A stretch of 64,000 bases of DNA from an uncultured bacterium (GTDB lineage Bacteria > Armatimonadota > Hebobacteria > CAIYQO01), in assembly GCA_964472305.1 (NCBI GenBank), contig CAYYJR010000011.1, forward strand, positions 547-64,546. The letters are read 5' to 3'. The position numbers and the translations under genes are program-made. The notes beneath the pieces are model-generated. The model was not told the origin of the DNA, did not search any database, and saw nothing but the letters and a program-made list of their open reading frames with translations. Positions 4,165-49,206 of the stretch are shown in pieces. Within the stretch, counting starts at the first letter, position 1, and each line of letters begins with the position of its first letter.

Positions 4165-5373
4165 TTACTTCACCAGGGCGGGTACATTGACCAGCATGCC
4201 GATGAACGTCACGACGCGATACAGCAGCGCCCCCGCCAGCGCGCAGGTGGGAATGGTGAAGATCCACGCGGCCACGATATTCTTGGCGATGCCCCAACGC
4301 ACTGCCGACAAGCGCTTCGAGGCGCCAATGCCCAGGATAGAGGAAGAGATGACGTGCGTGGTGCTGATGGGCACCTTCAGAAACGTCACCAGTTGGATGG
4401 TCACCGCGGCCACCGTTTCCGCGGCGAAGCCATGCACGGGCGCGAGTCGGATGATCTTATGTCCCAGCGTGTGAATCACCCGCATGCCGCCCAGGCCGGT
4501 GCCCAGCGCGATGACCAGCGCGCACGAGAGCTTCACCCAGAACGGCACCTCGACGTGCCCGCCGGCATCGAGCGCGATGAATTGCCCGGCAACCAGCGCC
4601 ATGGTAATGATGCCCATCGCTTTCTGTGCATCATTGGAACCATGGGAGAATGCCATCAGCGCCGACGACACAATCTGCCAGCCGCGGAAATGCTTGTTTA
4701 GCTTGTAAGGCGCGACATTGCGGAAGATCCACATCATGATGACCATCAGCAGCCAGCCTACCGAGAAGGCCACGACCGGCGCCAGTACCATAAACAATCC
4801 GATCTTGCCGAGATATGCCATGTTCAACGGGATACCGCCCAGCACAAAGACGCCGATCAATCCGCCGAAAAGTGAGTGCGAGGTGCTGACCGGCATCCCC
4901 CAACTGGCGGTCAGGTAGCTCCACGCACTGGCGCCGATCAGGCCGCACAAGATCATCACCGGAGTGATTTGCGTCGGATCGATATGCTTCATATCGGCGA
5001 ACTTGGTCGCGATGCTGGTGGCCACGCCGGCATGCGCCATGGCGCCGGCCAAATTCAATACCGCAGCCATGAGCAGCGCCGCGGTCGGCGTGAGCACCCG
5101 GGTGGAGATGACCGTGGCGATGGCGTTGCCGGCGTCGTGCATGCCGTTGACATAATCGAATGCCAGTGCCGCGATCACCACGCTCACGATCAACACCGTG
5201 TTGACCGGCACGCCGTACGCCACGGCGATGGCGACGGCAATCGCCAGCACCGCGATAATTCCCCCGGCAATCGCCCACGGCACATGGGGACGGGGAGGGA
5301 CATCGGCATCTATGACGAATCGGGATTGCTCGTCAGTATAGTCAACGGTCTCTTCAATAATTGTCGTCATCAT
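4165..5373 (-). CDS. pit: Inorganic phosphate transporter, PiT family
   Basis: 402-aa polytopic membrane protein with the duplicated PiT signature (GSNDAQKAMGII / GMHDAGNAIATVI). RBS GGAAGGAAG. Sits immediately downstream of phoU in the pst operon. Confidence 0.85.
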   Translation of the reverse strand: MMTTIIEETVDYTDEQSRFVIDADVPPRPHVPWAIAGGIIAVLAIAVAIAVAYGVPVNTVLIVSVVIAALAFDYVNGMHDAGNAIATVISTRVLTPTAALLMAAVLNLAGAMAHAGVATSIATKFADMKHIDPTQITPVMILCGLIGASAWSYLTASWGMPVSTSHSLFGGLIGVFVLGGIPLNMAYLGKIGLFMVLAPVVAFSVGWLLMVIMMWIFRNVAPYKLNKHFRGWQIVSSALMAFSHGSNDAQKAMGIITMALVAGQFIALDAGGHVEVPFWVKLSCALVIALGTGLGGMRVIHTLGHKIIRLAPVHGFAAETVAAVTIQLVTFLKVPISTTHVISSSILGIGASKRLSAVRWGIAKNIVAAWIFTIPTCALAGALLYRVVTFIGMLVNVPALVK

Positions 5374-5420
5374 ATCTTCCTTCCGGACATCAAAAAGCGG
5401 GACATCGCACGTATCGTCAG

Positions 5421-6098
5421 TTACCTCGCGGACAGCGGTGGAGTCTCCGATTTATGGCGGATGATTTCGCCATCGATCAGATACACCACATCCTCGGCAA
5501 TGTTGGTGGCATAATCGGCGATGCGCTCCAGATTGCGGCTCACCGACAGGTAGTTGATCAGTGTTTCCACCTGCTCCGGGTGCTGCCGTATCGCCTGCTG
5601 AATGCTGTGGAACATCTGCCGGTTGATCTCATCCACCTCATCATCGGCGGCGCCAACATCTCGCGCCAGTTCCACGTCCATGTTCATCAACGCATCCAGG
5701 CTGCGGCGCAGCATGTTTTGCGTCTTCATCGACATCTCGGTCAGATCGTATGGCGGCGGGATGGCGGTATGGGCAGCCAGCACCGCGGAGCGCTCGGCGA
5801 TATTCACCGCCAGGTCGCCGACGCGCTCCAGATCGTTGTTGATCTTCATGACGGCGATCACCAATCGTAAATCGATGGCGACCGGCTGATGAAGGGCAAG
5901 AATTTTTAGACATTCTTCCTCGATATCCACCTCCATCTGGTCGATATCGTTATCGGTTTCGATGACCTGGGCAGCCAGCGCGACGTTGCGTTCGCTGACT
6001 GATTTGGTCGCCAGCCGCACGCTGTCCTCGACCAGGGCGCTGAGCGTGAGAATCTGGCGTTTCAGGTTTTCGATTTCCCGTTGCAAATGGCGTGACAT
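5421..6098 (-). CDS. phoU: Phosphate signalling complex protein PhoU
   Basis: 225 aa with two PhoU repeats (ALAAQVIETDNDIDQMEVDIEEECLKILALHQP and LAAHTAIPPP...). Lies between pstB and pit. Confidence 0.9.
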   Translation of the reverse strand: MSRHLQREIENLKRQILTLSALVEDSVRLATKSVSERNVALAAQVIETDNDIDQMEVDIEEECLKILALHQPVAIDLRLVIAVMKINNDLERVGDLAVNIAERSAVLAAHTAIPPPYDLTEMSMKTQNMLRRSLDALMNMDVELARDVGAADDEVDEINRQMFHSIQQAIRQHPEQVETLINYLSVSRNLERIADYATNIAEDVVYLIDGEIIRHKSETPPLSAR

Positions 6099-6107
6099 AT
6101 CGCCTCC

Positions 6108-6920
6108 TTAGCCGAATCGACCGGTGATGTAATCCTCGGTCCGCTTGTCAGTCGGATCAGTAAATAATTTTGTTGACTGGTTGAATTCGATCAATTCCCC
6201 GTTGAGGAAAAATCCCGTTTCATCAGAGACGCGCGCGGCCTGCTGCATATTGTGCGTCACAATGACAATAGTATAGCGCTCTTTCAGATCGAGCATAAGC
6301 TCCTCGATACTGGCGGTGGAAATGGGATCGAGTGCCGAACACGGTTCATCCATGAGCACCACGTCCGGTCGCACGGCCAGCACGCGGGCGATGCATAACC
6401 GTTGCTGCTGACCGCCGGAGAGCGAGGTGGCTGGATGATGCAGTACCTCTCGCACTTCATCCCACAAAGCTGCCTGCCGCAGGCTGTGTTCGACGAGTGC
6501 GTCCAGTTCGGCACCGCGGGCCAGCCCGTTCACGCGCGCCCCGTAGGCGACGTTATCGAAGATCGACATCGGGAAGGGGGTCGGGCGCTGAAAGACCATG
6601 CCGACATGGCGACGGAGGGCAACCACATCGATATCCGCGGCAGTGATGTCCTCGCTGTCCAGCAAGATGCGTCCTTCAGTGCGGGTGCCTTCGATGGTGT
6701 CGTTCATGCGGTTGATGGTGCGCAGGAAGGTCGATTTACCACAGCCGGACGGGCCGATGAGCGCGGTGATCCGGCGTTCCCGGATGACCAGGTTCACGTT
6801 GCGCAGCACCTGCTTGCGGCCATAGAAGAAATGCAAGCCCTCAATGCGTAGTTTTTCCGGATTGGCCATATCTTCCTCAATTCGCAGTGGCCGTGGTTGC
6901 ATGGTCGGTGTTTCCAGCAT
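6108..6920 (-). CDS. pstB: Phosphate ABC transporter ATP-binding protein PstB
   Basis: Walker [13 protein letters not shown] signature [15 protein letters not shown], Walker [13 protein letters not shown], and the PstB-typical FDNVAYG. Start placed at M38 (MLETPTM...), giving a 4-bp overlap with the pstA stop. The long N-terminal extension in the ORF track is probably spurious. Confidence 0.9.
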
Positions 6921-6922
6921 AG

Positions 6923-7795
6923 CTACCTCACAAAGCGGGCCCGACCGCGCGTCGCGTAGCGGGCGGCGACGCTCAGCACGAGAATCATCAACACCAGCAC
7001 CAGCGCGCCGGCCCAGGCTTGCGCGTGCCAATCGTCATAGGGGGCAATCGCATAGGTGTAAATCGATACGGGCAGACTTGCTATCGGCTGGTCGAGTTGG
7101 ACGCTGAAGAAGCGATTGCCGAAAGCAGTGAAAAGCAGCGGTGCGGTTTCCCCTGCAATGCGCGCAACCGCCAGCAGAATCCCGGTGACAATCCCGCCGC
7201 GCGCGCTGAGCATCACGACGGAAAGAACCGTTTTGAAGTGCGTCGCTCCCAGCGAGAGCGCGGCTTCGCGTTGTGAGACCGGCACCATGCGCACGAATTC
7301 TTCCGTCGTGCGGACGATGGTTGGAATCATCATAATCCCCAGTGCCACCCCGCCCGCCAGCGCGGAGAAATGATGCAGCGGTTTCACGATGATGCCCCAG
7401 ACGAAGACGCCGATCACGATCGAGGGAACGCTTGCCAGTACATCGGCGGTGAAGCGGATCACAGTTCCCACGCGGTGTTTGCCGAATTCCGCCAGGTATA
7501 TGCCACCGAGCAAGCCGAACGGCAAGCCGATCAGGCTCGCGAGGCCGATGAGGATGAGCGTGCCGACGATGGCGTTGGCCATGCCGCCGCCCGGTTCACC
7601 CACCGGTTTGGGCAGTTGGGTGAGGAATGCCAGGTTCAACGCCGGCAATCCTTGCCGGAACACGTAATACAGGACCATGATCAGCGGGATAATGGCGATG
7701 AGGGTCATCATCGCCGCCACGATCCACATCAGGTGATTGGCCGACCGTCGCCGTATCGTGAGCCAGTTCCGTTGTCGATGCAAATCGGTCATCAT
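6923..7795 (-). CDS. pstA: Phosphate ABC transporter permease PstA
   Basis: 290-aa polytopic permease with the EAA-like loop ([15 protein letters not shown]). Its stop overlaps the pstB start and its start overlaps the pstC stop. Confidence 0.85.
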
Positions 7796-8766
7796 TCGCG
7801 CACTCCCTGCACGTCCCCACGCGACACGCTCCAGATCAGCAGTCGCGCCACGACGTTGACGAGAATGGTGATGACGCCAAGCACCAGCACCACCTCGAAG
7901 AGGGAGGCTGTTTCCAGCTTCCCAGTTGCCTCGGCAAAGTTATTGACCAGCAGGCTGGGCATGGTATACCCCGGCTGAAACAGCGAGGCGGTGATCTGTT
8001 GCGCGCTGTTGCCGATCACCATCGTCACCGCCATCGTCTCGCCAAGGGCACGGCCCAGTCCGAGGATGATTCCACCGAGTATGCCGGTACGTGCATACCG
8101 CAGTACCGGCCCGCGCAGGGTTTCCCAGTGAGTGGCACCCAGGGCAAGAGACGCTTCGCGTTGTGTGTGCGGCACCGCCTGGATGACCTCACGCGCGACG
8201 GAGGTGATATATGGCAGGATCATGATCGCCAGGATCACCCCGGCGGCCAGTAAGCCGACGCCCAGCGGCGGCCCGGTGAAGAGCGGGATGAAACCCAGGT
8301 GCGCACCCAACCAACCCTCCGCCAGGCGTATCAGCGGCACCAGCACGAAAATTCCCCATAATCCGTAGACGATGCTGGGAACAGCAGCCAGCAGTTCGAC
8401 CACAAAGGACAATGGCCGCCGCAGCCATGGGGGGGCCAGCTCAGCCAGGAAAATCGCCGTGCCCAGGCTGACCGGCACCGCGATAAGCAGTGCCAGCAGC
8501 GAGGTGACGATGGTGCCGAAGATCGCGAAAAACACACCGTACTTATCGAAGACGGCATCCCAGATCGATGTGGTGAGAAATTGCCATTTGAATGCCGTGA
8601 TGGCCGGCTGCGCATCGCGGAACAGCACATATCCCAGCACGATAATCAGCAACGGCACGATCAGCGCAAAGGCAAAAGTGCTCCAGCGAAAGAGGCGATC
8701 AATCACATTGCCGCCGAACAGGCCGCGCCGCCGTAAAGAAGAACGGGTTGTCGAATAGGTCGCCAT
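7792..8766 (-). CDS. pstC: Phosphate ABC transporter permease PstC
   Basis: 324-aa permease with SLALGATHWETLRGPVLRYARTGILGG. Its stop overlaps pstA by 4 bp. Confidence 0.85.
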   Translation of the reverse strand: MATYSTTRSSLRRRGLFGGNVIDRLFRWSTFAFALIVPLLIIVLGYVLFRDAQPAITAFKWQFLTTSIWDAVFDKYGVFFAIFGTIVTSLLALLIAVPVSLGTAIFLAELAPPWLRRPLSFVVELLAAVPSIVYGLWGIFVLVPLIRLAEGWLGAHLGFIPLFTGPPLGVGLLAAGVILAIMILPYITSVAREVIQAVPHTQREASLALGATHWETLRGPVLRYARTGILGGIILGLGRALGETMAVTMVIGNSAQQITASLFQPGYTMPSLLVNNFAEATGKLETASLFEVVLVLGVITILVNVVARLLIWSVSRGDVQGVRE

Positions 8767-8781
8767 CAGATCACGATTCCG

Positions 8782-9915
8782 TTAGTGAGTTGCATGCAGC
8801 GGTTTCCCGTTCGACGTCACCGTACCAAGCAGGTGCTCGTTCAGCGCGGTCACCGCGGCCGGCAGAGGCGCATACAGCAGCGGCGCCGCATGCTGCTGCC
8901 CGTCATGAATCGCCCACCAGAGGAAATCGACCAACTCTGCGCCTTTCGTATGATCGGGTTGCTGCTGATACAGCAAAAGGTAGGTAAAACCACTGATGGG
9001 GTAGGCATCTTTCCCCGGTGCGTTGACGATGGAAACGCGCGCGTCCTTCCGCATGGCTTCGGCAGCGCCGTTTGCAGCCGCCTTGGTGGAAGCGATGCTG
9101 GGCGTCACGAAGGTACCGGTTTGATTGCGAATCGCGGCATACGGCAGCGCATTCTGTTCCGCGTATGCCAATTCCACGTAGCCGATGCTGCCCGGGGTTT
9201 GTTTCAACAAGCCGGCGACGCCTTCATTCCCCTTACCGCCGATGCCGGCCGGCCAGTTGACGGATTTGCCACTGCCGACTCTCGAAGCCCAGGTGTTACT
9301 GACGGCAGCCAGGTAATGGGTGAAGATATAGGTCGTGCCGCTGCCGTCGGAGCGGTGCGCTACGGCAATCGCCAGGTTCGGCAGCTTGAGTGTCGGATTG
9401 ACGGAAGCGATTCGCGAGTCACTCCACGTCGTGATCGCGCCGAGGAAAATGCCGGCCACCACCTCAGGCGTGAGCTTCACCCTGTCGGAGATACCGGGTA
9501 GGTTATACGCGAGCACCACCGCACCGGCGACCATGGGAAGCTGCACGACCGGCGCCGGCATCATTTTCAACTCTTCGTCCGAGAGCGGCGCGTCACTGGC
9601 GCCGAAATCGACCGTATTGGCCTGCAACTGCTTGATGCCGCCGCCACTGCCGATGGACTGATAGTTGATGCGTGCGTGCTGATGTGTTTCCCCATAGATC
9701 GCGAACCATTTGGAATACAGCGGATAAGGAAAAGTCGCGCCGGCGCCATTCAGGTTGACGACGGAGTCCGTGGCGGCTGGTTGCGCCTGGTCTTGCTGTG
9801 CCGTCAGGGGAGGAGTTTTTTTGCAGGATGCGACAGTGAATGCGATGACCAGCACGATGGCTGTCAGTATCCCCGCGCGCGGCAGGAAAACATGTGTATG
9901 TTGCTTATGCTTCAT
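8782..9915 (-). CDS. pstS: Phosphate-binding lipoprotein PstS
   Basis: Lipoprotein signal with lipobox (LVIAFTVASCKK). The PBP fold shows the phosphate-binding motifs YQSIGSGGGIKQ and FGASDAPLSDEE. First gene of pstSCAB-phoU-pit. Confidence 0.85.
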   Translation of the reverse strand: MKHKQHTHVFLPRAGILTAIVLVIAFTVASCKKTPPLTAQQDQAQPAATDSVVNLNGAGATFPYPLYSKWFAIYGETHQHARINYQSIGSGGGIKQLQANTVDFGASDAPLSDEELKMMPAPVVQLPMVAGAVVLAYNLPGISDRVKLTPEVVAGIFLGAITTWSDSRIASVNPTLKLPNLAIAVAHRSDGSGTTYIFTHYLAAVSNTWASRVGSGKSVNWPAGIGGKGNEGVAGLLKQTPGSIGYVELAYAEQNALPYAAIRNQTGTFVTPSIASTKAAANGAAEAMRKDARVSIVNAPGKDAYPISGFTYLLLYQQQPDHTKGAELVDFLWWAIHDGQQHAAPLLYAPLPAAVTALNEHLLGTVTSNGKPLHATH

Positions 9916-9973
9916 GGAAGCCAGCCCTTTCTATCGACGGCATGCACATTGATTGTCAGTTGTAGCGTACCGC

Positions 9974-9995
9974 CGAAATATTAGTATTGTGTGAG
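9974..9995 (-). promoter_or_regulatory. Candidate Pho box upstream of pstS (CTCACAC aata CTAATAT ttcg)
   Basis: Same 11-bp phased repeat type as upstream of the porin, about 60-80 nt upstream of the pstS ATG. Confidence 0.3.
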
Positions 9996-10067
9996 GATAA
10001 TAGTTTGGTTGTGCGCGGTTTTGTCGTTTCATCTGATCATTGAGCGACCGGGCATAGCCGCCGCAGG

Positions 10068-11234
10068 TTAGAACTTGGTTGCAAGGCCGATGGCAAACTG
10101 ATCCAGGTCGGGTGTATTCGTGCCGCCGTTAGTGGCATTACGCGTATACTCGGCTTTGAGGTCGGTCAACGGGGTGAGATGGAATCCCGCGCCGAGGGAG
10201 AACCGGGAGTATCGATTCACCGCCAACGTGCTGTCGACCAGTGTCGCCGTTTGCCCATCATTCAACTGCACCGTGCTATAGCGCGAGGCGAAATACAATC
10301 GGCCGGTGGCATTGATGAGTCCTTCGGCATACCAGTAGCTTGCCGTACGGTCAGTCGCGCCGGTGAAATTGTCATTGGCCTGGCCATAGGCAGTTGCGAG
10401 CTGGAATCGCGAAAGATTCGCTCCACTGGGAATGAGCGACTTGATGCCGGTGGTCCCGTAATTCCAGCGCGCGTCCACTTCCCACAGCGTACGATGCCAG
10501 CTGGTGACGCCGGCGGGAACGGCTTGCAGGTTGGCGACTTTTAACGCCGGAGCGATCACTGCGCCACCGAACTTGATATTCTCGCCGGAATCGTAACCGC
10601 TGACGGACAGGTAGACATTTTTATACGGGGCAATGCCGATTTTAGCTCCGGTCGCCAGTCCGTTGTTGGCTGAACCCACGCCACCGGTACCGTTCAGCAC
10701 ACTCAGCGAATAACTCGCCGGCATGCCGACCGGCAGGGAACCGCGGAAATTGATCCCGCCGTCATAGCCGCCTACTGCCGATGCTGAATTGGTGATGAGG
10801 ATGCCTTCCACCGGGTTGTCGGTCCAGGTTTCCTCGCCGATATCTACCTTGACTTTGCCCATTCGCATCGTGTGTCCCGGCAGCGCGCCTCCCCAGTTAT
10901 TCAAGTCCAGATAGAAGTAATCGAATCCGTTGCCGGTCGCCTTGTTGTTGCTGAAGCGATTGATGATGGTGAAGTCCTTGCGAGGCGTGAAAGTGAAGCG
11001 AAGCTTGGCATCCGGGATATCCAGTGCGCGATTGGCGTAGGCGCCATTCGCGTCGGAGTCAATGATGCCCATAAACAGGCGACCGTCGATCTTGAGGATC
11101 GAGCCATTACTGGCGGTCTGTACGGTCGGTGGGACGGCAGGCGGTATGATCGTCGTCGGCGCGTCTGCGGCAAACGCGTCCAGCGTGCCGGCGAAGATCA
11201 GTGCCAGTCCCAATGCCATTGCGGTTGTGTTCAC
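10068..11234 (-). CDS. Outer-membrane beta-barrel porin, probably phosphate-selective (OprO/OprP-like)
   Basis: Signal peptide (MALGLALIFAGTLDAFAADA), alternating beta-strand pattern, C-terminal ...AIGLATKF ending in Phe. Located between phoR and pstS with Pho-box-like repeats upstream. Start GTG (11234) or ATG (11219) behind RBS AGGAGG. Confidence 0.6.
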   Translation of the reverse strand: MNTTAMALGLALIFAGTLDAFAADAPTTIIPPAVPPTVQTASNGSILKIDGRLFMGIIDSDANGAYANRALDIPDAKLRFTFTPRKDFTIINRFSNNKATGNGFDYFYLDLNNWGGALPGHTMRMGKVKVDIGEETWTDNPVEGILITNSASAVGGYDGGINFRGSLPVGMPASYSLSVLNGTGGVGSANNGLATGAKIGIAPYKNVYLSVSGYDSGENIKFGGAVIAPALKVANLQAVPAGVTSWHRTLWEVDARWNYGTTGIKSLIPSGANLSRFQLATAYGQANDNFTGATDRTASYWYAEGLINATGRLYFASRYSTVQLNDGQTATLVDSTLAVNRYSRFSLGAGFHLTPLTDLKAEYTRNATNGGTNTPDLDQFAIGLATKF

Positions 11235-11328
11235 TGTAGTTATTCCTCCTGTTGTTCTGCGTTGCTGGCATGTCGGGGACGAAGTCGCCACGGGTCGTCC
11301 CACGGGCTGCCAGCATTTAGCTTACGGG

Positions 11329-11361
11329 GAGGTTATGAGCGGCGTGTTAGCGCAATGTGAG
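11329..11361 (-). promoter_or_regulatory. Candidate Pho box upstream of the porin gene (three 11-bp-phased repeats CTCACAT / CTAACAC / CTCATAA on the gene strand)
   Basis: On the gene strand: CTCACATtgcg CTAACACgccg CTCATAAcctc, about 95 nt upstream of the start. 7+4 periodicity as in enterobacterial CTGTCAT-type Pho boxes. Confidence 0.35.
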
Positions 11362-11475
11362 AGTTTGGTGGGGGGACACAATTAGCGGAGCTATTCGTGA
11401 GTAGTCGAAAATAACTCCATGTGGTGCGTATCCCATGGTGAGAATCATCGATGCCGGCGGGGAGAGTTCCTGTTG

Positions 11476-13269
11476 TTACTTCTCGTCGTGTTGCCCAGCG
11501 AGATGCGGCAGATACAGGGTGAAAAGACTGCCGTGGCCTACGGTGCTTTCCACGGTGACGTGGCCACCGTGCGCCTGGGCGATGTGTTTGACGATGGCCA
11601 GTCCCAAGCCGGTGCCGCCGAGTTTGCGGCTGCGGCCTTTATCCACGCGATAAAAGCGTTCGAAGAGGCGCGGCAGGTGCTCGGTAGGGATGCCGCTGCC
11701 GTGGTCGCGCACGCTGATCACGGCGTTGTCGTCGATGCGGGTGGCCGTCAGCTCGATGCGGCTGTGCGGTTCGCTGTATTTCAGAGCGTTGTCGAGCAGG
11801 TTGACCAGTGCCTGTTCGAGCAAGGCCGGGTTAACCCGCGCGCGCAACTCATCGGGACATTCCAGCGTGATGGTGATTTCTTTCGCCCCTGCCTTGAGTT
11901 CGCACGCCTGCACGGCGTTTTGTAAGATCACCGTCATTGCGCAATCGTCCAGGCGCAGCACGGCGGTTTCCGCCTCCTGTTCGATGCGCGACAGGCTGAG
12001 CAGGTCCTCGATAATCGCCTCCAGGCGATCAGCGTGGCGGGCGATGATCTGCAGGAAATGTTCCGCGTCGTCCGGCTGCCGCAGCGCTCCATCCTGCAGC
12101 GTCTCCACGAAGCCTTTGATCGAGGTGATGGGCGTCTTTAACTCGTGAGAAACGTTGGCGACGAAGTCACGGCGGATGCGCTCAAGCCGCCGCAGCCGCG
12201 TAATGTCGGTGAGCACCACCACGGCGCCCATGCGTCGGGCGGCTTCATCGTAGAGCGGTGTGCCGTGCACTTGCATGATGCGCTCATCGTCGCGCCGCAG
12301 GATCATCTCCGCTTCCAGCGGCTCGCGGCTGGCCAGCACCATGGCGACGAAGCGCTGTAGTTCGGTGTGGCGGATCACCTCCTGTAAACTGCGTCCCGCG
12401 GCCTGCTCGGCGTCAATCCCCACTAACTGCGCCGCCGCCTGGTTCAGCTTGAACACCTGCTCGTTGGAATCGACGGCAAATACCCCTTCCGACATGCCGG
12501 CCAGCACGGCGTCCTGCTCGTTGCGCTGCCGGGTGATGGCGCGGATGCGCTCATCCAGCCGGACGGCCATCTGGTTCATCGCCTCTGCCAACTTGCCGAT
12601 CTCCTCCGAATCCGGGATAGGCAGCGGGGTATCCAGTTCGCCGCGCGCGAAGCGTTGCGCGCCACGTTTCAGTGCTTCCAGTGGGCGGCTGATGCGGCGG
12701 GAAATGAGCAGGCTGGCGCCCGCGGCCAGCACCGCTACGATGAGCCAGCCGGCGATCAGCGAGTGGCGCATGGTGCGCAGCGCTTGTTCAACCGCGGTGA
12801 GCGGCACCGCGGCACGCACGATGCCGATGATCCCGCGCGTGCCGTGCGTTGGCACCGCGACATACATCATTTTCTCGCCCAGCGTGCGACTGAAACGAAT
12901 CGCCTGTCCGGTGCCCCCGCGCAACGCCTCTCGTACTTCCGGGCGGTCGGCATGGTTCTCCATCTGCGCGGGTTGTTCCTCGGAATCGCCGATCACACGG
13001 CCATCCGGCAGGATAATGGTGATGCGCGTCCGGCTGTCGCGGCCCGTGTGTTTGCACGTCGCATCCACCAGGGGGTATTGCCGGTTGCGCAGGGCGGGAT
13101 CGATGACGTGCGCGGCCAGTCGCGCACGCGCGGCCAGGTCGATTTCCTGCTGTTCCAGGAAGAATTGGTGGAAGAAATACGAGGCTGCCCAGCCCAGCGC
13201 CAGCAGCGAGAACAGCGTGATGAGCAGGAATGGCGAAAACAGTTGCCAGAGCAATCGCACACGGCGCAT
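11476..13269 (-). CDS. phoR: Phosphate regulon sensor histidine kinase PhoR
   Basis: N-terminal TM segments, HAMP, a PAS-like region, HisKA (RRDFVANVSHELKTPITSIKGF) and HATPase_c (N-box LVNLLDNALKYS, G-boxes DHGSGIP and GGTGLGLAIVKH). Its stop abuts the phoB stop/start region. Confidence 0.85.
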   Translation of the reverse strand: MRRVRLLWQLFSPFLLITLFSLLALGWAASYFFHQFFLEQQEIDLAARARLAAHVIDPALRNRQYPLVDATCKHTGRDSRTRITIILPDGRVIGDSEEQPAQMENHADRPEVREALRGGTGQAIRFSRTLGEKMMYVAVPTHGTRGIIGIVRAAVPLTAVEQALRTMRHSLIAGWLIVAVLAAGASLLISRRISRPLEALKRGAQRFARGELDTPLPIPDSEEIGKLAEAMNQMAVRLDERIRAITRQRNEQDAVLAGMSEGVFAVDSNEQVFKLNQAAAQLVGIDAEQAAGRSLQEVIRHTELQRFVAMVLASREPLEAEMILRRDDERIMQVHGTPLYDEAARRMGAVVVLTDITRLRRLERIRRDFVANVSHELKTPITSIKGFVETLQDGALRQPDDAEHFLQIIARHADRLEAIIEDLLSLSRIEQEAETAVLRLDDCAMTVILQNAVQACELKAGAKEITITLECPDELRARVNPALLEQALVNLLDNALKYSEPHSRIELTATRIDDNAVISVRDHGSGIPTEHLPRLFERFYRVDKGRSRKLGGTGLGLAIVKHIAQAHGGHVTVESTVGHGSLFTLYLPHLAGQHDEK

Positions 13270-20205: not shown

Positions 20206-20402
20206 ACGCCGCCGTCGGCTCACTTGCCGCCGCGAGGTATTGACAGTATTGCCGACTTTTTGCTACCGTTACGCATTGTGTAAGGAAGACTGCGCGGAGC
20301 GTGCGTGCGCATGAGCCGCCGGTAAGCCGGCAGACGATCTTTGTGGGGTCGGGCTGCCGGTTTTTGGTTACAGTGGACCGCCAACGTGCGGGAGACGTGG
20401 AA

Positions 20403-23400
20403 ATGCAGGGGGGATTCGCCGTGAGCCAGCATCAACAGTTGATCGAGTGGGTTAATGAAATGGCACGCATGTGCCAGCCGGATCGCATCGTCTGGATCGA
20501 TGGATCTGAAGACGAAAAGGAACGCCTCACCCAGGAAGCATTAAGCATCGGCGAGTTGATTCCCCTTGACCAGGAAAAACTGCCCGGCTGCGTGTATCAT
20601 CGCACCGCGACAAACGACGTAGCCCGTACAGAAGACCTGACGTTCATTTGTACCAAGTTGCAGGATGATGCCGGACCGACCAATAACTGGATGTCGCCGG
20701 AAGAGGGGTATCGCCGTGCCGGTGAGCTCTTCCAGGGTGCAATGCAGGGGCGGACGATGTATGTCATCCCCTTCTCCATGGGTCCGGTCGGTTCACCGTT
20801 CAGCAAGATCGGCGTCGAACTCACCGACAGCATCTACGTGGTGCTGAACATGCGCATCATGACCCGCATTGGGGCCGCCGTGCTGAAACAACTCGGTACC
20901 GCCGGCGAATTCACCCGGTGCCTGCATAGCAAGGCTGACCTGAACATCACGCGACGGTTGATTTTGCACTTCCCCGAAGACAACACCATCTGGAGCGTGG
21001 GCTCCGGTTATGGCGGCAACGTCTTGCTGGGCAAGAAATGCCTGGCGCTGCGCATTGCCAGCTTCCTCGGCAAGAGCGAAGGCTGGCTGGCTGAGCACAT
21101 GCTGATCATGGGCATTGAAGATCCAGCCGGACGCATCGAATATATCGCTGCCGCTTTCCCCAGTGCGTGCGGGAAGACCAACCTCGCCATGCTGCTGCCT
21201 CCGGAAGGGCTGCAGATGAAGGGGTATCGCATCTGGACCGTGGGCGACGACATCGCGTGGATGCGCATCGATACCGACGGGCGGTTGTGGGCGATCAATC
21301 CGGAAACCGGCTTCTTCGGCGTGGCGCCGGGTACGAACGCGAAGACCAACCCCAACATGATGAAGACCATCAGCAGCAACACAATCTACACCAACGTCGT
21401 GCTGGGCAACGACGGCACCGTGTGGTGGGAAGGCGGGGAAGGCGATCCGCCGGCGGAAGGCTTGGATTGGCAGGGACGTCCGTGGACGCCGGACACCGTG
21501 GACGCGGCTGGCAAGAAAGTCGTCGGCGCGCACCCGAACAGCCGCTTTACCGCGCCGATCACGCAATGTCCGACACACTCGTTCCGCATCGAGCACCATC
21601 ATGGCGTGCCCATCTCCGCCATCATCTTCGGCGGTCGCCGCGCCCACCTGGCGCCGCTGGTCTACGAGTCGTTCGACTGGGAGCACGGCGTCTTCGTCGG
21701 CGCGACCATGGCCTCCGAGCGCACCGCGGCGCAGTTCGGCGCCCAGGGTGAGGTTCGCCGCGATCCGATGGCCATGCTGCCTTTCTGCGGCTACCACATG
21801 GGCGACTACTTCGAGCATTGGTTGAACATGGGCCAGCGCATGAGCCAGCCGCCGAAAATCTTCAACGTCAACTGGTTCCGCATGGATGAGAACGGCAAAT
21901 TCCTGTGGCCCGGCTTCGGCGAAAATCTGCGCGTCATCGAGTGGATTCTCGACCGCTGCCGCGGCGAAGCCGATGCGCGCGAGACGCCTATCGGCTATGT
22001 GCCGACGGCGGACAGCCTGGACTTGACCGGACTGGATGTTTCGCGCGACACGCTGGAAAAACTGTTCGCCTGCAACCAGGAAGACTGGCTGCGCGAGACG
22101 GAATCCGTGCGCGTGTTCTTTGAGACATTCGGCGCGCGTCTGCCCAAGGAGATGTGGCAGCAACACACCGCGCTGCGTCAGCGTTTGGAATCCCCGGTCT
22201 CGATGTTGAAGGCAGGGAATACGTTGCGGCCTTCGGCGGTGGAACTCAATGCGATTATCGAGCGTGAGAATCCGGAACTGTTCGCCATGCTGTCGCAACT
22301 CGGCAAGCGCCTGTATTTCCCCAAGGGCATCCTGGCGCAGAGTGCGGAAGCCACCGAAAAGGCTAAGCAGTTCAACGCCACCATCGGCATCGCCCGCGAG
22401 CAGCAGCAACCGATGTATCTCCCCTCGGTGATGCAGTACCTGGACAAGCTGACACCGGCGGAGGCGCTGACCTACGCTCCGGCTACCGGTAATCCGGCAT
22501 TGCGCAAGCTGTGGAAAGAACACTTGCTGGCGCAGAACCCGAGCCTGGCTGGCAAAGCGATCAGCACGCCCATCGTTACCGGTGGCGTGACCCACGCACT
22601 AAGTCTGGTGGGTGATCTGTTCGTGAACCAGGGTGATTTCATCCTGCTGCCGGACAAGTTTTGGGAGAATTATGAACTGCTGTTCGGCGTACGCATGGAA
22701 GCCCAACTCGGCGTCTATCCGTTTTATAACGCAGACGGCGGCTTCAATGTCGAGGGGTTGCGTCTGGCGCTGGCCGCGCGCCGTGACGCGGGAAAGACCA
22801 TCCTGGTACTGAACTTCCCGAACAATCCGACCGGCTACTCGATTCGCAAGAACGAGGCGGACGCTGTGGTGGCGGTGCTGAAAGAGGCCGCGGAGAATGG
22901 CTGCAACCTGGTGGTCATTTCCGACGATGCTTACTTCGGTTTGTATTACGGCGACGAGGTGCTGCCGGAATCGCTCTTCGCGAAGATCACCGGACTGCAC
23001 GAGCGCATCCTGGCGGTGAAAGTGGACGGGCCGACGAAGGAAGAATATGTGTGGGGTTTCCGCACCGGCATGATCACCTTCGGCGCGAATGCTGCCAGCA
23101 CGGACGCGCTTTACGGCGCGCTGGAAAAGAAGGTGGCGGGCGCCATCCGCAGCGCCATCTCCAACTGCTCGCAGCCGGCGCAGTCCATCCTGTTGAAAGC
23201 GATGAACGATGACGCGTTCTCAGCGGAGATTCAGCAGAAGTACGACATTATGGCCAGCCGCGCGGCGAAGACGCAGGAGATTCTGCGGAACCCGGCGTTC
23301 ACCGAGTTGTGGGAGCCGTATCCCTTTAACGCGGGCTACTTTATGTGCCTGAAGCTGAAGGGGATCGACGCGGAGAAATATCGCAAGCACCTGCTCGATA

Positions 23401-23552
23401 AGCACGGCGTGGGCGTCATTGCCGATGGGAAGCACGACATCCGCGTGGCTTTCTCCGCGGTCGAAGCGGAGGAGCTGTCCGCGCTCTACGATGTGCTCGC
23501 GACCGCCGCCCGTGAACTCATCGCGGACGGGGAAGCCGTTTCGGTGAAATAG
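20403..23552 (+). CDS. pckG: Fusion protein: GTP-dependent phosphoenolpyruvate carboxykinase (N-terminal, about 600 aa) plus class-I AspC-like PLP aminotransferase (C-terminal, about 450 aa)
   Basis: One uninterrupted reading frame. PEPCK-GTP motifs: LIEWVNEMARMCQPDRIVWIDGSEDE, the kinase-1a P-loop AAFPSACGKTNLAML, WMRIDTDGRLWAINPETGFFGVAPGT, NWFRMDENGKFLWPGFGENLRV. Beyond ~nt 22200 come aminotransferase motifs: NFPNNPTGY, VVISDDAYFGLYY, and the PLP-lysine block GPTKEEYVWGFRTG (compare AspC SYSKNFGLYNERVG). An intrinsic terminator follows. Confidence 0.8.
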   Translation: MQGGFAVSQHQQLIEWVNEMARMCQPDRIVWIDGSEDEKERLTQEALSIGELIPLDQEKLPGCVYHRTATNDVARTEDLTFICTKLQDDAGPTNNWMSPEEGYRRAGELFQGAMQGRTMYVIPFSMGPVGSPFSKIGVELTDSIYVVLNMRIMTRIGAAVLKQLGTAGEFTRCLHSKADLNITRRLILHFPEDNTIWSVGSGYGGNVLLGKKCLALRIASFLGKSEGWLAEHMLIMGIEDPAGRIEYIAAAFPSACGKTNLAMLLPPEGLQMKGYRIWTVGDDIAWMRIDTDGRLWAINPETGFFGVAPGTNAKTNPNMMKTISSNTIYTNVVLGNDGTVWWEGGEGDPPAEGLDWQGRPWTPDTVDAAGKKVVGAHPNSRFTAPITQCPTHSFRIEHHHGVPISAIIFGGRRAHLAPLVYESFDWEHGVFVGATMASERTAAQFGAQGEVRRDPMAMLPFCGYHMGDYFEHWLNMGQRMSQPPKIFNVNWFRMDENGKFLWPGFGENLRVIEWILDRCRGEADARETPIGYVPTADSLDLTGLDVSRDTLEKLFACNQEDWLRETESVRVFFETFGARLPKEMWQQHTALRQRLESPVSMLKAGNTLRPSAVELNAIIERENPELFAMLSQLGKRLYFPKGILAQSAEATEKAKQFNATIGIAREQQQPMYLPSVMQYLDKLTPAEALTYAPATGNPALRKLWKEHLLAQNPSLAGKAISTPIVTGGVTHALSLVGDLFVNQGDFILLPDKFWENYELLFGVRMEAQLGVYPFYNADGGFNVEGLRLALAARRDAGKTILVLNFPNNPTGYSIRKNEADAVVAVLKEAAENGCNLVVISDDAYFGLYYGDEVLPESLFAKITGLHERILAVKVDGPTKEEYVWGFRTGMITFGANAASTDALYGALEKKVAGAIRSAISNCSQPAQSILLKAMNDDAFSAEIQQKYDIMASRAAKTQEILRNPAFTELWEPYPFNAGYFMCLKLKGIDAEKYRKHLLDKHGVGVIADGKHDIRVAFSAVEAEELSALYDVLATAARELIADGEAVSVK

Positions 23553-23574
23553 CCGCGCGTTTACCGTACCGTTG

Positions 23575-23614
23575 CACGCCTGCGGCGCCATCGCCGCGGG
23601 CGTGCGTTTTTTGG
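23575..23614 (+). terminator. Rho-independent terminator after the pckG-aminotransferase fusion (bidirectional with the convergent antiporter gene)
   Basis: CACGCCTGCGGCG-CCAT-CGCCGCGGGCGTG forms a stem of about 13 bp with one mismatch, followed by CGTTTTTTGG. Confidence 0.7.
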
Positions 23615-23744
23615 GCGCGGAATGCACTGAAGCACGGCGGTCGAGAAAGTCAGAGCCTGCCTGCCGGGTGAAGAATCGGCGGCGTGTCGGGCCGATGGTG
23701 GGATCACTCCGACCGTAATGGCTTGTGTCAGCACCGGATGGCCG

Positions 23745-31920: not shown

Positions 31921-33489
31921 TCAGTCCACTCGATAATGCGCGCCCATGCTGATCGGATTGCGCAGGGCAGCGTCGGTGATGAGCAGTGCGACTTCGATGG
32001 CGTTGCGCAGGCCGATGAGCTGGTCGGAAAGCTTGGTTTCGCGATAGAACTGTTCGATGCGGTGTTCCAGGTAGCTCAGGTCGGCGCGGGCGCGGACCAG
32101 ACGCTTGGTCGTGCGCACGATGCCGGCGTAATTCCACATGGTGGTACGGATGGTCATCCAGTCCTGCACGATGAGCGCCGGGTCGATGCTCTCCGTCAGG
32201 TCGGCGTCATGCCATTCGGCGACGTGGTCGAAGCGCGTTTCTGTTTCGGCACGGGCGGCGCGGGCAGCGTCCTCCCCCGCTTTCACTCCCCATGTCAGCG
32301 CTTCCAGCAGCGAGGTGCTGGCCAGCCGGTTGGCGCCGTGTACGCCGGTGCAGGAGGTTTCGCCTACGGCGTAGAGATTCGGCAGCGACGAGCGGCCCAG
32401 CAGGTCCGCCTTGATACCGCCCATGAAGAAGTGCGCAGCCGGCACGACCGGAATCGGATCGCGGGTGATGTCCACGCCGTAATTCAGCAGCGTGTGGTAG
32501 ATGGTGGGGAAGCGTTTGGTGACGTCTACCTCGATCTCCGAAAGATCGAGCAGCATGTATTCCGAACCTTCCTTCAGCATTTCTTCCCAGATCGAGCGGG
32601 CAACCACGTCGCGCGGGGCCAGTTCAGCGAGCGGGTGGTAATGCGCCATGAAGCGCTCGCCTTTCCGGTTGCGCAGCACCGCGCCTTCGCCGCGCACCGC
32701 CTCGGAGATGAGGAAGCGGTCGGCGTCGCGGTGATAAAACGCGGTAGGATGGAACTGCACGAATTCGGCGTTGATGATCTCCGCCTGAGCGCGGTGCGCC
32801 ATGGCCAGACCATCACCGCGCGCACCATGCGGGTTGGTGGAGTGCAGATAAATCTGTCCCAGCCCACCGGTGGCCAGGATCGTCTTGCGCGCCAGCACTT
32901 TGCGCACTCCCCCGGTGCCCTGGTCCAGCAGATAGGCCCCCAGGCACACCACCGGCTCGTAAATGGCCAGCGGGTCGAGGGAATGGTGCGGCAAACTGAT
33001 AAGGTCGACGGCGGTGTGGCCGTGCCAGATTTCGATGTTTGGGTGGGCGCGCACGCCGGCGGCAAATCCCTCCGCCATGGCGCGCCCGGTGGCATCAGCA
33101 GCGTAAAGAATGCGGCGGGTGGAATGCGCGGCTTCCTGGGTGTATTCCAGCTCCTCGCCTTTGCGCGAAAAGTTCACACCCAGGCGGTTCACCAGCATTT
33201 GATACACCAGCGGAGGGCCGTCCTCCGCCAATTGCCGCACCGCGGGTGGCCAACACAAACCATTGCCGGCGGCGACCACGTCCTTCGCCAACAATGCCGG
33301 CGAATCGTCGCCACCGCGCGCGATGATGCCGCCTTGCGCATACGCGGTGTTCGAATCGGTGATGCTGGCGCCTTTGCAAACGAGCAACACCCGCGCGCCC
33401 AGATCGGCAGCCTGCAATGCCGCCGCGCACCCTGCCGCGCCGGTTCCGAGAATTAATACGTCATAAATCGGTGAATCCATCATCGCCAT
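31921..33489 (-). CDS. nadB: L-aspartate oxidase (NadB; SdhA/FrdA-like flavoprotein)
   Basis: YDVLILGTGAAGCAAALQAADLGARVLLVCKG (FAD), HFFMGGI, RANRLASTSLLEALTWG. About 523 aa, which fits NadB rather than SdhA. Start chosen at M35. Confidence 0.6.
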   Translation of the reverse strand: MAMMDSPIYDVLILGTGAAGCAAALQAADLGARVLLVCKGASITDSNTAYAQGGIIARGGDDSPALLAKDVVAAGNGLCWPPAVRQLAEDGPPLVYQMLVNRLGVNFSRKGEELEYTQEAAHSTRRILYAADATGRAMAEGFAAGVRAHPNIEIWHGHTAVDLISLPHHSLDPLAIYEPVVCLGAYLLDQGTGGVRKVLARKTILATGGLGQIYLHSTNPHGARGDGLAMAHRAQAEIINAEFVQFHPTAFYHRDADRFLISEAVRGEGAVLRNRKGERFMAHYHPLAELAPRDVVARSIWEEMLKEGSEYMLLDLSEIEVDVTKRFPTIYHTLLNYGVDITRDPIPVVPAAHFFMGGIKADLLGRSSLPNLYAVGETSCTGVHGANRLASTSLLEALTWGVKAGEDAARAARAETETRFDHVAEWHDADLTESIDPALIVQDWMTIRTTMWNYAGIVRTTKRLVRARADLSYLEHRIEQFYRETKLSDQLIGLRNAIEVALLITDAALRNPISMGAHYRVD

Positions 33490-33920
33490 AACTTCGTCTC
33501 GCGTCACAGTATAGCATGCCGTGTGCGAAGGGAAAATCTTGTGAACGCTTTCACGAACCCACACTCGTTTCCGCGTGCATGCGCTGTGCATGGCATATGC
33601 GCTGTGGTACCCCGGTCACAGCGTTTTATTATACAACATCGGCACGTCGAACGGATGCACCTGCAGGACGATCATTACGCGCTTCTCGGACGAACACTGA
33701 TGCGTTGAGCCATTCTACCAGATAGACTCCACCTTGTGGACGATGTTGGCGGGTGGTGAAGAAGACGCCGTGCTGTTCCGGCAGCGAGTGCAAGCCGGTT
33801 GTGCCGTCAACACAACCATTCGATCTCATCCGAGGCGATGCCAAGGAGTATCAGTCGATATCGATTGCCCCGGCAGTCGGTGAAATTCGGTAAGAACACG
33901 TGCAGGAATACGAACATGAC

Positions 33921-35032: not shown

Positions 35033-36859
35033 TCAATGGTTTGCCGGTGGCGGAGGGCATGGGGATGCGTCGTCGACCAGGTCCACCGGTATCCACCCGC
35101 GCACGGAATTGATGAGATAGATTGCCTCAGCGCCGGTCAGGTCCTCGCAAGTGATGACGGCCTCGCGCAGGCGACCGCGGGCCAGCAGTTCCGCGCGGAA
35201 GACGCCGGCCAGCAGACCGCAAGCGACGGGCGGGGTGAGCAGCGTGCCGTCACGGCGGATGACCACGTTGGCCAGCGTCGCCTCGGTCACCTCGCCGCGA
35301 GTGTTCCACAGGATGATGTCGTCGCAGTCCGGGCACGCCGCGCGCGCCGACTCGTATACCGCGCGCTGCGTGGTTTTATGATAGAGGAAGCGGTTGTCAA
35401 TTTCTACCGGCGTCGTCGCCAGCGCCACCCGCCACCGGCGGCGTGGAGTGGAACGCTCCAGCGGATAGGCTTCGACCATGATCTCGCCGTCTTCGGCGAC
35501 CAGCAGGCGCACCCGGCGACGGCCGGCGCCGAATTCGGCTGCGGTCGCGTCAAGACGGGCTGTCACGAGCGCGAGATCAAGCGGGTAGTTGAAATACCGC
35601 GCGGCGTCCGCCAGCCGCGCCAGGTGGCGGTCGCGCAGATAATAGCCGGCGTCCGGCTTCCATAACAGCGTCTCCAGCAGGCAGAACGCCGGGCGGTCGG
35701 AAAACAGCACCAATGCTTTGGTGCGGCATTCCTCATATTCATCCTCGGCGCGCGAATCCCATACAATGCCGCCGCCGGTGCCGTACTCCGCCCATCCGGT
35801 GCCGCGGTCCACATGCACGGTACGAATGGCGACATTAAACTGCGCCCGCCGTCCCGGCGCGATCCATCCGATGCTGCCGGTGTAAATGCCGCGCGGCGCG
35901 GTTTCCAATTCGGCGATAATCTCCATAGTGCGCACTTTCGGCGCGCCGGTGATGGAGGCGCAGGGGAAGAGCGCGCGCAAGATTTCTTGCAGCGGCACGC
36001 GCGTTTCCGCCTGCACGGTTGAGGTCATCTGTAACAGGGTTGCGTAGCGTTCCACCGCAAACAGCGTGGGCACCCGCACGCTGCTGGCGCGGGCAATGCG
36101 TCCCAGGTCGTTGCGCATCATATCGACGATCATCACGTTTTCCGCGCGATTCTTCATCGAGTAATGCAATGCCCGCGCCTGTGCTTCGTCGTCCTGCCAG
36201 GTCAGACCGCGCGGCGCGGTACCCTTCATCGGACGGCAGGTGATCTTCTTGCCCGCCAGGCGGAAGAACAGTTCGGGTGATGCGGAACAGAGCGCATGGT
36301 CGCCCAGGTCCAGATAAGCCCCGTACGGCACGCGCTGCGCCCTGCATAATGCGGAGAATAGCGTCCACGGGTGCGCCTGCACGGCCGCGCGCAACCGCAG
36401 TGTATAGTTTACCTGGTACGTGTCGCCGGCGGCGATGTAGTCTTTGATGCGTGCGATGGCCCGGCGGTAGGCTGTGCGTGTGACAGACGGGGACCATGCC
36501 GGGATGGGGCATGCCTCAATCCATGGCGGGCGGCGCAGCATGCTGACATCGCGGTACAGTCCGAAGTGGAGCAGCGGCAAGGGACCGGGTGGGCGGACGA
36601 CGAAGGCGTCATCGAAGGCCGGTGCGGCCTCATAACTCAGGAATCCCACTGCGTGCAACCCGTGTGCCGTTGCGGCATCCACTTCGTCCAACGCGGCGGT
36701 CACTTCGTCGAGGCGAGACGTTCGCACCTGACCGACCGGGTCGGCGAAGTGCCACCAGGCATCGTCGCAGTGCAGCAAGGCGCTGCCGGGTGCGGGTGCA
36801 AGGTCGTCCGTGGTGGCGGTCATGCGTGCGTCGGAGATGATGCGAGCCATTGTTGCCAC
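35033..36859 (-). CDS. pabB: Bifunctional aminodeoxychorismate synthase component I / aminodeoxychorismate lyase (PabB-PabC fusion)
   Basis: N-terminal chorismate-binding domain (ASPELFFRL, PMKGT, NRAENVMIVDMMRNDLGRI, SITGAPKVRTMEII, GIYTGSIGW). C-terminal class-IV aminotransferase-like domain (FCLLETLLW..., YHKTTQR, ILWNTRGEVTEATLANVV). Confidence 0.75.
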   Translation of the reverse strand: MATMARIISDARMTATTDDLAPAPGSALLHCDDAWWHFADPVGQVRTSRLDEVTAALDEVDAATAHGLHAVGFLSYEAAPAFDDAFVVRPPGPLPLLHFGLYRDVSMLRRPPWIEACPIPAWSPSVTRTAYRRAIARIKDYIAAGDTYQVNYTLRLRAAVQAHPWTLFSALCRAQRVPYGAYLDLGDHALCSASPELFFRLAGKKITCRPMKGTAPRGLTWQDDEAQARALHYSMKNRAENVMIVDMMRNDLGRIARASSVRVPTLFAVERYATLLQMTSTVQAETRVPLQEILRALFPCASITGAPKVRTMEIIAELETAPRGIYTGSIGWIAPGRRAQFNVAIRTVHVDRGTGWAEYGTGGGIVWDSRAEDEYEECRTKALVLFSDRPAFCLLETLLWKPDAGYYLRDRHLARLADAARYFNYPLDLALVTARLDATAAEFGAGRRRVRLLVAEDGEIMVEAYPLERSTPRRRWRVALATTPVEIDNRFLYHKTTQRAVYESARAACPDCDDIILWNTRGEVTEATLANVVIRRDGTLLTPPVACGLLAGVFRAELLARGRLREAVITCEDLTGAEAIYLINSVRGWIPVDLVDDASPCPPPPANH

Positions 36860-48977: not shown

Positions 48978-49206
48978 CCTGTCCGGCATGGCTTCAACGT
49001 CGTGTGGCATGATCGGTGACACATGGCGTGGGAATGGTGTGTTTCTGCTCTTGATGAAGAAGGAATCGTGCAAATACCGGCGAATAGCTAAAGATACGAT
49101 GAAAAACGATAACCCTCCCACAGCGCACCCCCGGTCGCGGGGCAGGCGTAATGGTCGGATAAGACGACGCACTTCGTGGATGACAGGCAATGGCAGGGGT
49201 GCGAGC

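Follow-up and report, generated by a model that had tools for sequence, protein, structure and literature searches.

The conversion of aspartate into phosphoenolpyruvate (PEP) by way of oxaloacetate is a long-known pair of consecutive reactions, in which an aspartate aminotransferase is followed by a PEP carboxykinase (PEPCK). It is carried out by the cytosolic enzymes GOT1 and PEPCK-C in mammalian gluconeogenesis, and by aspartate aminotransferase and PEPCK in the bundle-sheath cells of PEPCK-type C4 metabolism. A GDH2-AAT2-PEPCK route of glutamate utilisation is also outlined for the yeast Pichia pastoris (bioRxiv 10.1101/2021.03.10.434748). In such routes the two enzymes are separate proteins of unrelated subfamilies without a covalent link. 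The same logic of passing on scarce oxaloacetate applies to the mitochondrial metabolons of malate dehydrogenase (MDH) with aspartate aminotransferase or with citrate synthase, which are non-covalent assemblies and in which channelling is itself described as disputed (PMC11461322). An additional layer of organisation occurs in an uncultured bacterium of the Armatimonadota, of which a 64,000-nucleotide stretch (positions 547 to 64,546 of contig CAYYJR010000011.1, assembly GCA_964472305.1; hereafter the window) was analysed. A single gene of the window, located at 20403..23552 on the forward strand, encodes a GTP-dependent PEPCK joined by a peptide bond to a class-I aminotransferase. The protein is probably a genuine and vertically maintained bifunctional enzyme, in which an active GTP-PEPCK and an active aspartate:2-oxoglutarate aminotransferase share oxaloacetate and may, by a slight preference, carry flux mainly from aspartate to PEP, through the same consecutive reactions as the unfused pairs.

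The open frame that contains the fusion extends from 20301 to 23552 without an in-frame stop, as found both in the list of open reading frames (ORFs) and on reading the sequence. The ATG at 20403 is the likely start and is preferred over a GTG at 20301, because homologs are 1038-1045 amino acids long and because a Shine-Dalgarno-like GGGAGA (20390..20395, forward strand) lies 7 nt upstream of this ATG. From there the gene comprises 1049 codons followed by a TAG stop (23550-23552), an assignment based on the ORF, on its domain content and on a public protein of 1049 amino acids (P0001) that was retrieved in the protein cluster search and is 100% identical to the window fusion. Pfam places PEPCK_N at residues 15-223, PEPCK_GTP at residues 228-594 and Aminotran_1_2 at residues 670-1030 of the fusion protein, which consists of two complete enzymes on one chain joined by a linker of 13 residues. 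The single uninterrupted ORF that the original prediction had read from the sequence alone is thus real, its product being 1049 and not 1050 residues long.

The N-terminal half (20424..22190, forward strand; residues 8-596) is a complete GTP-dependent PEPCK. It reaches 887 bits with the NCBIfam model NF003253 (cut-off 504) over positions 18-608 of the 612 of the profile, as well as 297 and 545 bits with the Pfam families PF17297 and PF00821, respectively. The stand-alone PckG of Mycobacterium tuberculosis (Rv0211, PDB 4wiu) aligns with it over residues 14-607 of 608 (E 7e-198), so that the match runs to the natural C-terminus of that enzyme. Both proteins have the catalytic residues and the P-loop in common, the latter being the kinase-1a motif PSACGKTN at nt 21159-21182, and the metal-, oxaloacetate- and nucleotide-binding residues of the window PEPCK line up with those of 4wiu. 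Residue conservation was counted over 123 fused homologs, all at least 70% identical. Residues R75, Y203, K211/212, H232, S254, K258, T259, D282/283, R381 and R412/413 are present in every one of them, and the same is true for W491/F492 and N508 of the guanine site. The chemistry of stand-alone PckG is presumably that of the window PEPCK half as well, from which the fusion differs in bearing an extra aminotransferase of 450 residues on a conserved 13-residue linker.

This linker (SPVSMLKAGNTLR; 22191..22229, forward strand; residues 597-609) has a fixed length and near-invariant residues at P598, G605 and R609. The alignment is gap-free between residues 585 and 625 in all 123 homologs, and the linker is under strong purifying selection at the protein level. 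It also contains an in-frame methionine, Met601 (nt 22203-22205), which had raised the idea that an independent aminotransferase could be made from the domain junction. In the corresponding rival explanation, Met601 or the linker region acts as an internal start and yields a free aminotransferase beside or instead of the fusion. Apart from the presence of Met601 itself, this is favoured by the occurrence of some methionine within residues 596-612 in 46 of the 123 homologs and by one uncultured Planctomycetales metagenome-assembled genome (MAG; locus L059, 6031-6051), whose linker is interrupted by a TAG, with an ATG five codons further on where the aminotransferase would naturally begin. However, position 601 is a methionine in just 8 homologs and a leucine in 105, no convincing Shine-Dalgarno motif was found when one was looked for ahead of Met601, and a linker of constant length is being selected as protein. 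The methionine of the earlier observation is therefore present without being conserved. An internal start is decidedly unlikely and, if used, would add a product and not substitute for the fusion.

The possibility that a lost stop codon or a frameshift merged two neighbouring genes, through an error of sequencing or assembly, is best judged from other genomes. Among the 8000 matches obtained from 5.8 billion proteins, the best 120 clusters are approximately 1020-1108 amino acids long, contain all three Pfam domains and are 73-81% identical to the window protein, P0001 coming in addition at 100%; the few clusters that bear a name are called only 'phosphoenolpyruvate carboxykinase (GTP)'. In a genome scan restricted to one genome per species and using the junction plus the aminotransferase segment as query, relatives of this segment were found in 288 species-level genomes, and the loci of the best 80 of these were examined. 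They belong to MAGs labelled Planctomycetota (Thermoguttaceae, Pirellulales, Planctomycetaceae and Ca. Anammoximicrobium) or Armatimonadota, together with single bins of Latescibacterota and Gemmatimonadetes. In about 65 of the 80 loci a single open frame, at least 1000 codons long, spans both PEPCK and aminotransferase, and most of the remaining ones are cut by a contig end or carry frameshifts in long-read assemblies. Frameshifts or internal stops of this sort, seen in the long-read MAGs of loci L007, L012, L015, L069 and L072, are what speaks for an artefact. Against it stand the continuous frame in about 65 independent genomes and in more than 120 protein clusters, obtained in different studies and with different technologies, and the gap-free junction. 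Codon usage is also uniform across this junction. Both halves have a G+C proportion of 0.79 at third codon positions (GC3), and their codon usages correlate at r = 0.90, so that there is no sign of a chimeric join. The probability of an artefact is accordingly negligible. The original prediction had proposed to search for the fusion in related genomes, where it is indeed found, and had named orthologs that are always separate as the observation that would speak against it; the homologs retrieved are instead mostly fused. Nor is the architecture the rarity that it might have been, being widespread and old.

The age of the fusion is apparent from a neighbour-joining tree of the fused proteins (without support values), in which the window copy falls inside an Armatimonadota-labelled clade that includes a complete chromosome of 4.66 Mb (L025), and the copies of Planctomycetota form other clades. 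Because the tree separates the copies of the two groups in this way, the fusion is, judged from its branching, an old one that has taken hold in two phyla or more. Not all descendants have kept it. Four loci (L067, L073, L076 and L080) encode the aminotransferase by itself, no PEPCK being found close by, and, in the aminotransferase tree (likewise without support values), these four and the split L059 protein nest at different points inside the fused clade. The scattered placement of these five separated aminotransferases suggests a single fusion event that was later undone several times. In L059, nature provides a split version with which the fusion can be compared.

The C-terminal half (22230..23519, forward strand; residues 610-1039) is a complete class-I, fold-type I aminotransferase that depends on pyridoxal 5'-phosphate (PLP). 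The two hallmarks that had been noticed in it were both located, an NPTG motif at nt 22824-22835 and the PLP lysine, Lys879 (nt 23037-23039), which lies within DGPTKEEYVWGFRTG and aligns to SMSK of 4emy and to SYSK of Escherichia coli AspC. The description of this half as AspC-like was right as far as fold and motifs are concerned, since these are common to E. coli AspC and TyrB (subgroup I-alpha). The similarity to these enzymes is remote, however, and the true family is a different one, NF006388/PRK08637. Its NCBIfam model gives 593 bits (cut-off 301) for residues 610-1039 over positions 3-431 of the 433 of the profile. Among known structures, PDB 2x5f, the Sar2028 protein of Staphylococcus aureus, matches end to end from its residue 3 (E 1e-108), while enzymes of the E. 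coli type, as represented by TyrB structures, match at only about E 1e-8. A 210-amino-acid C-terminal piece compared with the PDB matched 2x5f alone, being too divergent for AspC or TyrB, and a profile comparison was used in its place. With hhalign, the alignment to a hand-entered copy of the AspC sequence reached a probability of 92.7% over 367 columns at 22% identity, and paired N808 with Asn194, D841 with Asp222, Y844 with Tyr225, K879 with Lys258, R887 with Arg266, R916 with Arg292 and R1014 with Arg386 (conventional pig-enzyme numbering). Arg916 (nt 23148-23150) and Arg1014 (nt 23442-23444) are of particular interest, as Arg292 binds the side-chain carboxylate and Arg386 the alpha-carboxylate of dicarboxylic substrates such as aspartate and glutamate. 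All seven residues, and the other catalytic residues that were checked, are invariant in the 123 fused homologs.

Such invariance bears on a further rival explanation, in which the aminotransferase half is a non-catalytic module that senses metabolites and regulates PEPCK. A precedent for this exists in the PTA-like domain carried by some malic enzymes, which is non-catalytic and exerts allosteric control, including by aspartate and glutamate (PMC8100219). A sensor would hardly be expected to keep the PLP lysine and every catalytic and substrate-binding residue checked in all 123 homologs, nor would its stand-alone descendants be expected to persist, as those of the fused clade do, as full-length aminotransferases. 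A purely regulatory role is therefore highly improbable.

Information on the substrate comes from the relatives of this half. Sar2028 is a free protein of 430 amino acids, about 50% identical end to end to its PEPCK-fused counterpart in the window, with which it shares the catalytic and the carboxylate-binding residues. Its structure was deposited with two chains as an Asp/Tyr/Phe PLP aminotransferase. It is presumably the protein that the literature calls aspA (SAUSA300_1916, annotated 'aminotransferase'), an equation that is probable and rests on annotation, and one paper annotates Sar2028 as an aspartate aminotransferase. The aspA product of S. aureus is an aspartate aminotransferase, the loss of which results in aspartate auxotrophy (PMC7275739).

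A second source of information is the repeated fusion of the same family to other partners. A census of 1.84 billion representative proteins (E <= 1e-30) contained 338 representatives of the NF006388 family, nearly all of them free proteins of about 430 amino acids and one of them standing for the whole of the window-type fusion. Three sister architectures were found beside it, partly among the few long representatives of this census and partly in a follow-up search. In the first, the aminotransferase precedes a GTP-dependent PEPCK, in eight clusters (P0158 and P0278-P0284; down to 53% identity to P0158; contigs of at most 163 kb). In the second, it is joined to an ATP-dependent PEPCK, as in P0297 from a Ca. 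Aenigmarchaeota MAG (649 bits with TIGR00224 pckA) and in P0299. In the third, the partner of P0147, P0295 and P0298 is MDH and not lactate dehydrogenase, as judged from an arginine in the specificity loop of all three (GVARKPGMSRDDL in P0147); P0147 and P0295 score 414 and 406 bits, respectively, with TIGR01763 (cut-off 352). The aminotransferase parts of all fusions tested (P0147, P0295, P0158 and P0297) pass the NF006388 cut-off, three of the sister fusion genes run unbroken along their contigs, and two recur in independent assemblies. The sister architectures resemble the window fusion in combining the same aminotransferase with an oxaloacetate-using partner, and differ from it in placing the aminotransferase first, in recruiting other partner families (ATP-PEPCK and MDH), in occupying another branch of the tree and in having few known members. 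Those with MDH amount to a covalent version of the mitochondrial MDH-aspartate aminotransferase metabolon. In the neighbour-joining aminotransferase tree mentioned above, the aminotransferase-first fusions lie far from the window-type clade and are interleaved with free proteins, a position that argues for two or more independent origins of such fusions, and probably for more than two. As oxaloacetate is the sole metabolite common to GTP-PEPCK, ATP-PEPCK and MDH, the choice of partners points to a family that interconverts aspartate and oxaloacetate, and its recurrence indicates, as far as the comparison of sequences goes, selection for keeping an oxaloacetate producer and an oxaloacetate consumer together.

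The genomic setting of one archaeal fusion is also known. In a Ca. Aenigmarchaeota MAG (GCA_030639115.1; locus L083, 1-6880), an NTP-transferase, phosphoglycerate kinase (PGK), glyceraldehyde-3-phosphate dehydrogenase (GAPDH) and the aminotransferase-PEPCK(ATP) fusion form an operon-like row, with gaps of 33 and 11 nt within the PGK/GAPDH/fusion part and a divergent glutamate dehydrogenase upstream. The row has the appearance of a compact module of amino-acid and lower-glycolysis metabolism in a DPANN archaeon. Other long proteins of the census were set aside, namely 'fusions' to a sulfatase (P0170/P0301), to an EamA transporter (P0169/P0302) and to a UbiE methyltransferase (P0176), which occur in single or few clusters, show no metabolic connection and could result from gene-calling merges or from contaminant contigs. 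P0176 is labelled as coming from the genome of a mussel, Potamilus streckersoni.

Altogether, the alignment of R916 and R1014 to Arg292 and Arg386, an Asp/Tyr/Phe aminotransferase as the nearest structure and the fusion of the family elsewhere to enzymes that use oxaloacetate make it most likely that the aminotransferase half interconverts aspartate and oxaloacetate. If so, the product of one half is the substrate of the other, a relation that the sequences strongly suggest. The competing view is that this half uses another pair of substrates (aromatic, alanine/pyruvate or some other keto acid), in which case the two halves would not catalyse consecutive steps. TyrB-type enzymes also keep both Arg292 and Arg386, Sar2028 is named as an Asp/Tyr/Phe enzyme, and the family still has the label 'hypothetical protein' at NCBIfam. 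Nevertheless, a broad specificity would still admit aspartate, both arginine equivalents are invariant, and fusion of the family to two non-orthologous types of PEPCK and to MDH points to oxaloacetate, all of which makes a different substrate pair unlikely.

In the bifunctional enzyme that is preferred here, the N-terminal half would catalyse oxaloacetate + GTP <-> PEP + CO2 + GDP and the PLP-dependent C-terminal half aspartate + 2-oxoglutarate <-> oxaloacetate + glutamate. The net and reversible reaction would be aspartate + 2-oxoglutarate + GTP <-> PEP + CO2 + glutamate + GDP, with the scarce and chemically unstable oxaloacetate being made and used within one particle. Class-I aminotransferases are obligate dimers. 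Most GTP-PEPCKs are, in contrast, monomeric (PMC8100219), and on these grounds the fusion is expected, unlike most of its stand-alone PEPCK relatives, to be a homodimer whose core is formed by the aminotransferase domains and to which the two PEPCK lobes are tied by short conserved linkers. The gain from such an arrangement would be co-expression of the two activities at a ratio of 1:1 and a local hand-off of oxaloacetate. A more far-reaching proposal is that this hand-off is a recurrent pressure that has led to fusion of the same family at least twice and possibly four times, in bacteria and in DPANN-type archaea, and that the window enzyme is a true channelling machine of fixed geometry, an energy-conserving PEP/aspartate converter that, in entire lineages of the Planctomycetota and Armatimonadota, stands in for PEP carboxylase or pyruvate carboxylase. 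This stronger proposal is doubtful.

As to the direction of flux, only a slight lean is expressed here towards aspartate -> oxaloacetate -> PEP as the main physiological flux, that is, towards cataplerosis or gluconeogenesis from amino acids. The usual role of GTP-PEPCK in bacteria is toward PEP, and these enzymes generally bind CO2 weakly. Since the equilibrium of the transaminase would keep oxaloacetate low, a fused sink would help the forward reaction. A rough estimate from textbook constants, with glutamate in large excess over 2-oxoglutarate, gives an oxaloacetate concentration of a few micromolar at transaminase equilibrium, whereas PEPCK would run backwards at ordinary CO2 only at a lower one; the estimate thus favours aspartate -> PEP. 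The Aenigmarchaeota row of PGK, GAPDH and aminotransferase-PEPCK(ATP) can be counted on the same side, because the GAPDH/PGK pair is gluconeogenic in several archaea. Reverse flux would be possible at high CO2 and PEP, and it is quite possible that the enzyme works either way, according to the substrate.

The opposite assignment is a serious contender, to be given somewhat less than an even chance. Here the same bifunctional enzyme would run anaplerotically as a 'PEP-to-aspartate synthase', converting PEP + CO2 + GDP to oxaloacetate + GTP and then, by transamination with glutamate, to aspartate; the aminotransferase would pull the unfavourable carboxylation by holding local oxaloacetate very low, and the process would conserve energy. 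The family member aspA of S. aureus is biosynthetic, its loss causing auxotrophy for aspartate (PMC7275739), a route through GTP-PEPCK and then a class-I aminotransferase has been proposed in Thermococcus kodakarensis (PMC11921379), and PEPCK runs to oxaloacetate in saccharolytic anaerobes, e.g., Clostridium thermocellum (PMC8100219). Many of the carrier MAGs, moreover, come from anoxic sites high in CO2 (digesters, peat, sediment and groundwater), the window holds genes of sugar metabolism (e.g., a GH3 glycosidase), and the fusion gene itself is free-standing and housekeeping-like. This evidence is countered by the weak affinity of GTP-PEPCKs for CO2 and their action toward PEP, and by the thermodynamic estimate at ordinary metabolite levels. 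The argument from S. aureus, in turn, is only as good as the identity of aspA (SAUSA300_1916) with Sar2028, which, as said, comes from annotation.

Several points weigh against an obligatorily linked enzyme working from aspartate to PEP. The secondary splits in several lineages imply that covalent linkage is helpful and not essential. Even the most frequent flanking families are present in about 5 of the 80 loci at most, larger counts being due to shadow ORFs inside the gene, and without a conserved neighbourhood the window-type fusion provides no local support for a direction. The archaeal operon is chemically compatible with either one. The mapping of residues to AspC made use of a hand-entered sequence, and the characterisation of Sar2028 by Seetharamappa in 2007 is reportedly, by its title, a 'preliminary' one. 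An AlphaFold2 model of the full-length protein, computed from the alignment of the 123 fused sequences, which is shallow given their identity, has a pLDDT of 76 and a pTM of 0.59; its confidence is poor in parts of PEPCK, it shows no domain interface, and it leaves the predicted orientation of the domains unfixed. Finally, the open-access literature searched (PEPCK, aminotransferase and fusion, and the carrier taxa) contained no description of a PEPCK-aminotransferase fusion and no enzymology of any member.

This last result agrees with the suspicion, voiced when the gene was first read, that the architecture had not been characterised. A review of the PEP-pyruvate-oxaloacetate node discusses other fused domains and does not include a PEPCK-aminotransferase fusion (PMC8100219), nor is one mentioned in the Fimbriimonas genome paper. 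What appears to be new is the architecture; both of its enzymes are well known, as is the two-step route, and no new chemistry is implied. The fusion nevertheless has consequences for annotation, as a protein called plain 'PEPCK (GTP)' causes metabolic reconstructions of Planctomycetota and Armatimonadota MAGs to miss an aspartate aminotransferase, and the PEP-pyruvate-oxaloacetate node of these organisms may be misread. It also suggests a testable function, aspartate aminotransferase, for the large NF006388 family. Whether oxaloacetate hand-off between neighbouring enzymes brings a kinetic gain is a disputed question for which this protein would provide a covalent natural system, with built-in controls in the form of the reverse-order, ATP-PEPCK and MDH fusions and of the natural split versions. 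If run toward aspartate, a compact and GTP-conserving PEP-to-aspartate module could be of use for aspartate-family products.

The genes that flank the fusion gene are unrelated to it. A topoisomerase I, a GDSL hydrolase and an MpsC-family protein are encoded upstream, and a Ca2+/cation exchanger is encoded downstream on the opposite strand. An intrinsic terminator (23573..23616, forward strand), with a 15-bp stem containing 12 G-C pairs, a 4-nt loop and a T-run, begins 20 nt past the stop codon. From this hairpin and the unrelated flanking genes, it seems that the fusion gene either closes its transcription unit or is transcribed alone. A 600-amino-acid ORF on the reverse strand (20793-22595) overlaps the PEPCK half, and a family of antisense ORFs recurs in related loci as well; the ORF is taken as a shadow ORF typical of genes with high GC3 and not as a gene.

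Other genes of the window deserve a brief mention. At 31921-33591 (reverse strand), 8 kb from the fusion, lies a gene for a flavoprotein of 556 amino acids with FAD_binding_2 and a short Succ_DH_flav_C domain, the size and domains of which fit L-aspartate oxidase (NadB) or the flavoprotein of fumarate reductase/succinate dehydrogenase. If it is NadB, another aspartate-consuming enzyme would be encoded near the fusion. Phosphate-related domains cluster at 4165-13269, in genes for a PHO4 transporter, a PstS-like binding protein and a PAS/HAMP histidine kinase, between which other ORFs are located. The 64-kb window has no match to rRNA, tRNA or Rfam families. It does contain a second fused gene, at 35033-36859 (reverse strand), whose 608-amino-acid ORF combines a chorismate-binding enzyme domain with a class-IV aminotransferase domain and looks like a PabB-PabC (aminodeoxychorismate synthase/lyase) fusion. 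An ORF of 455 amino acids at 47610-48977 (forward strand) joins sigma-70 regions 2, 3 and 4 (residues 42-260) to a C-terminal GGDEF diguanylate-cyclase domain (residues 290-440), and a sigma factor that carries a cyclic di-GMP synthase domain in the same protein would be an unusual architecture. Directly downstream of this gene and of a T2SS-F gene follows an ORF of 1651 amino acids (48988-53943, forward strand), in which faint Pfam matches to Reg_prop and Peptidase_S55 are the only domains seen.

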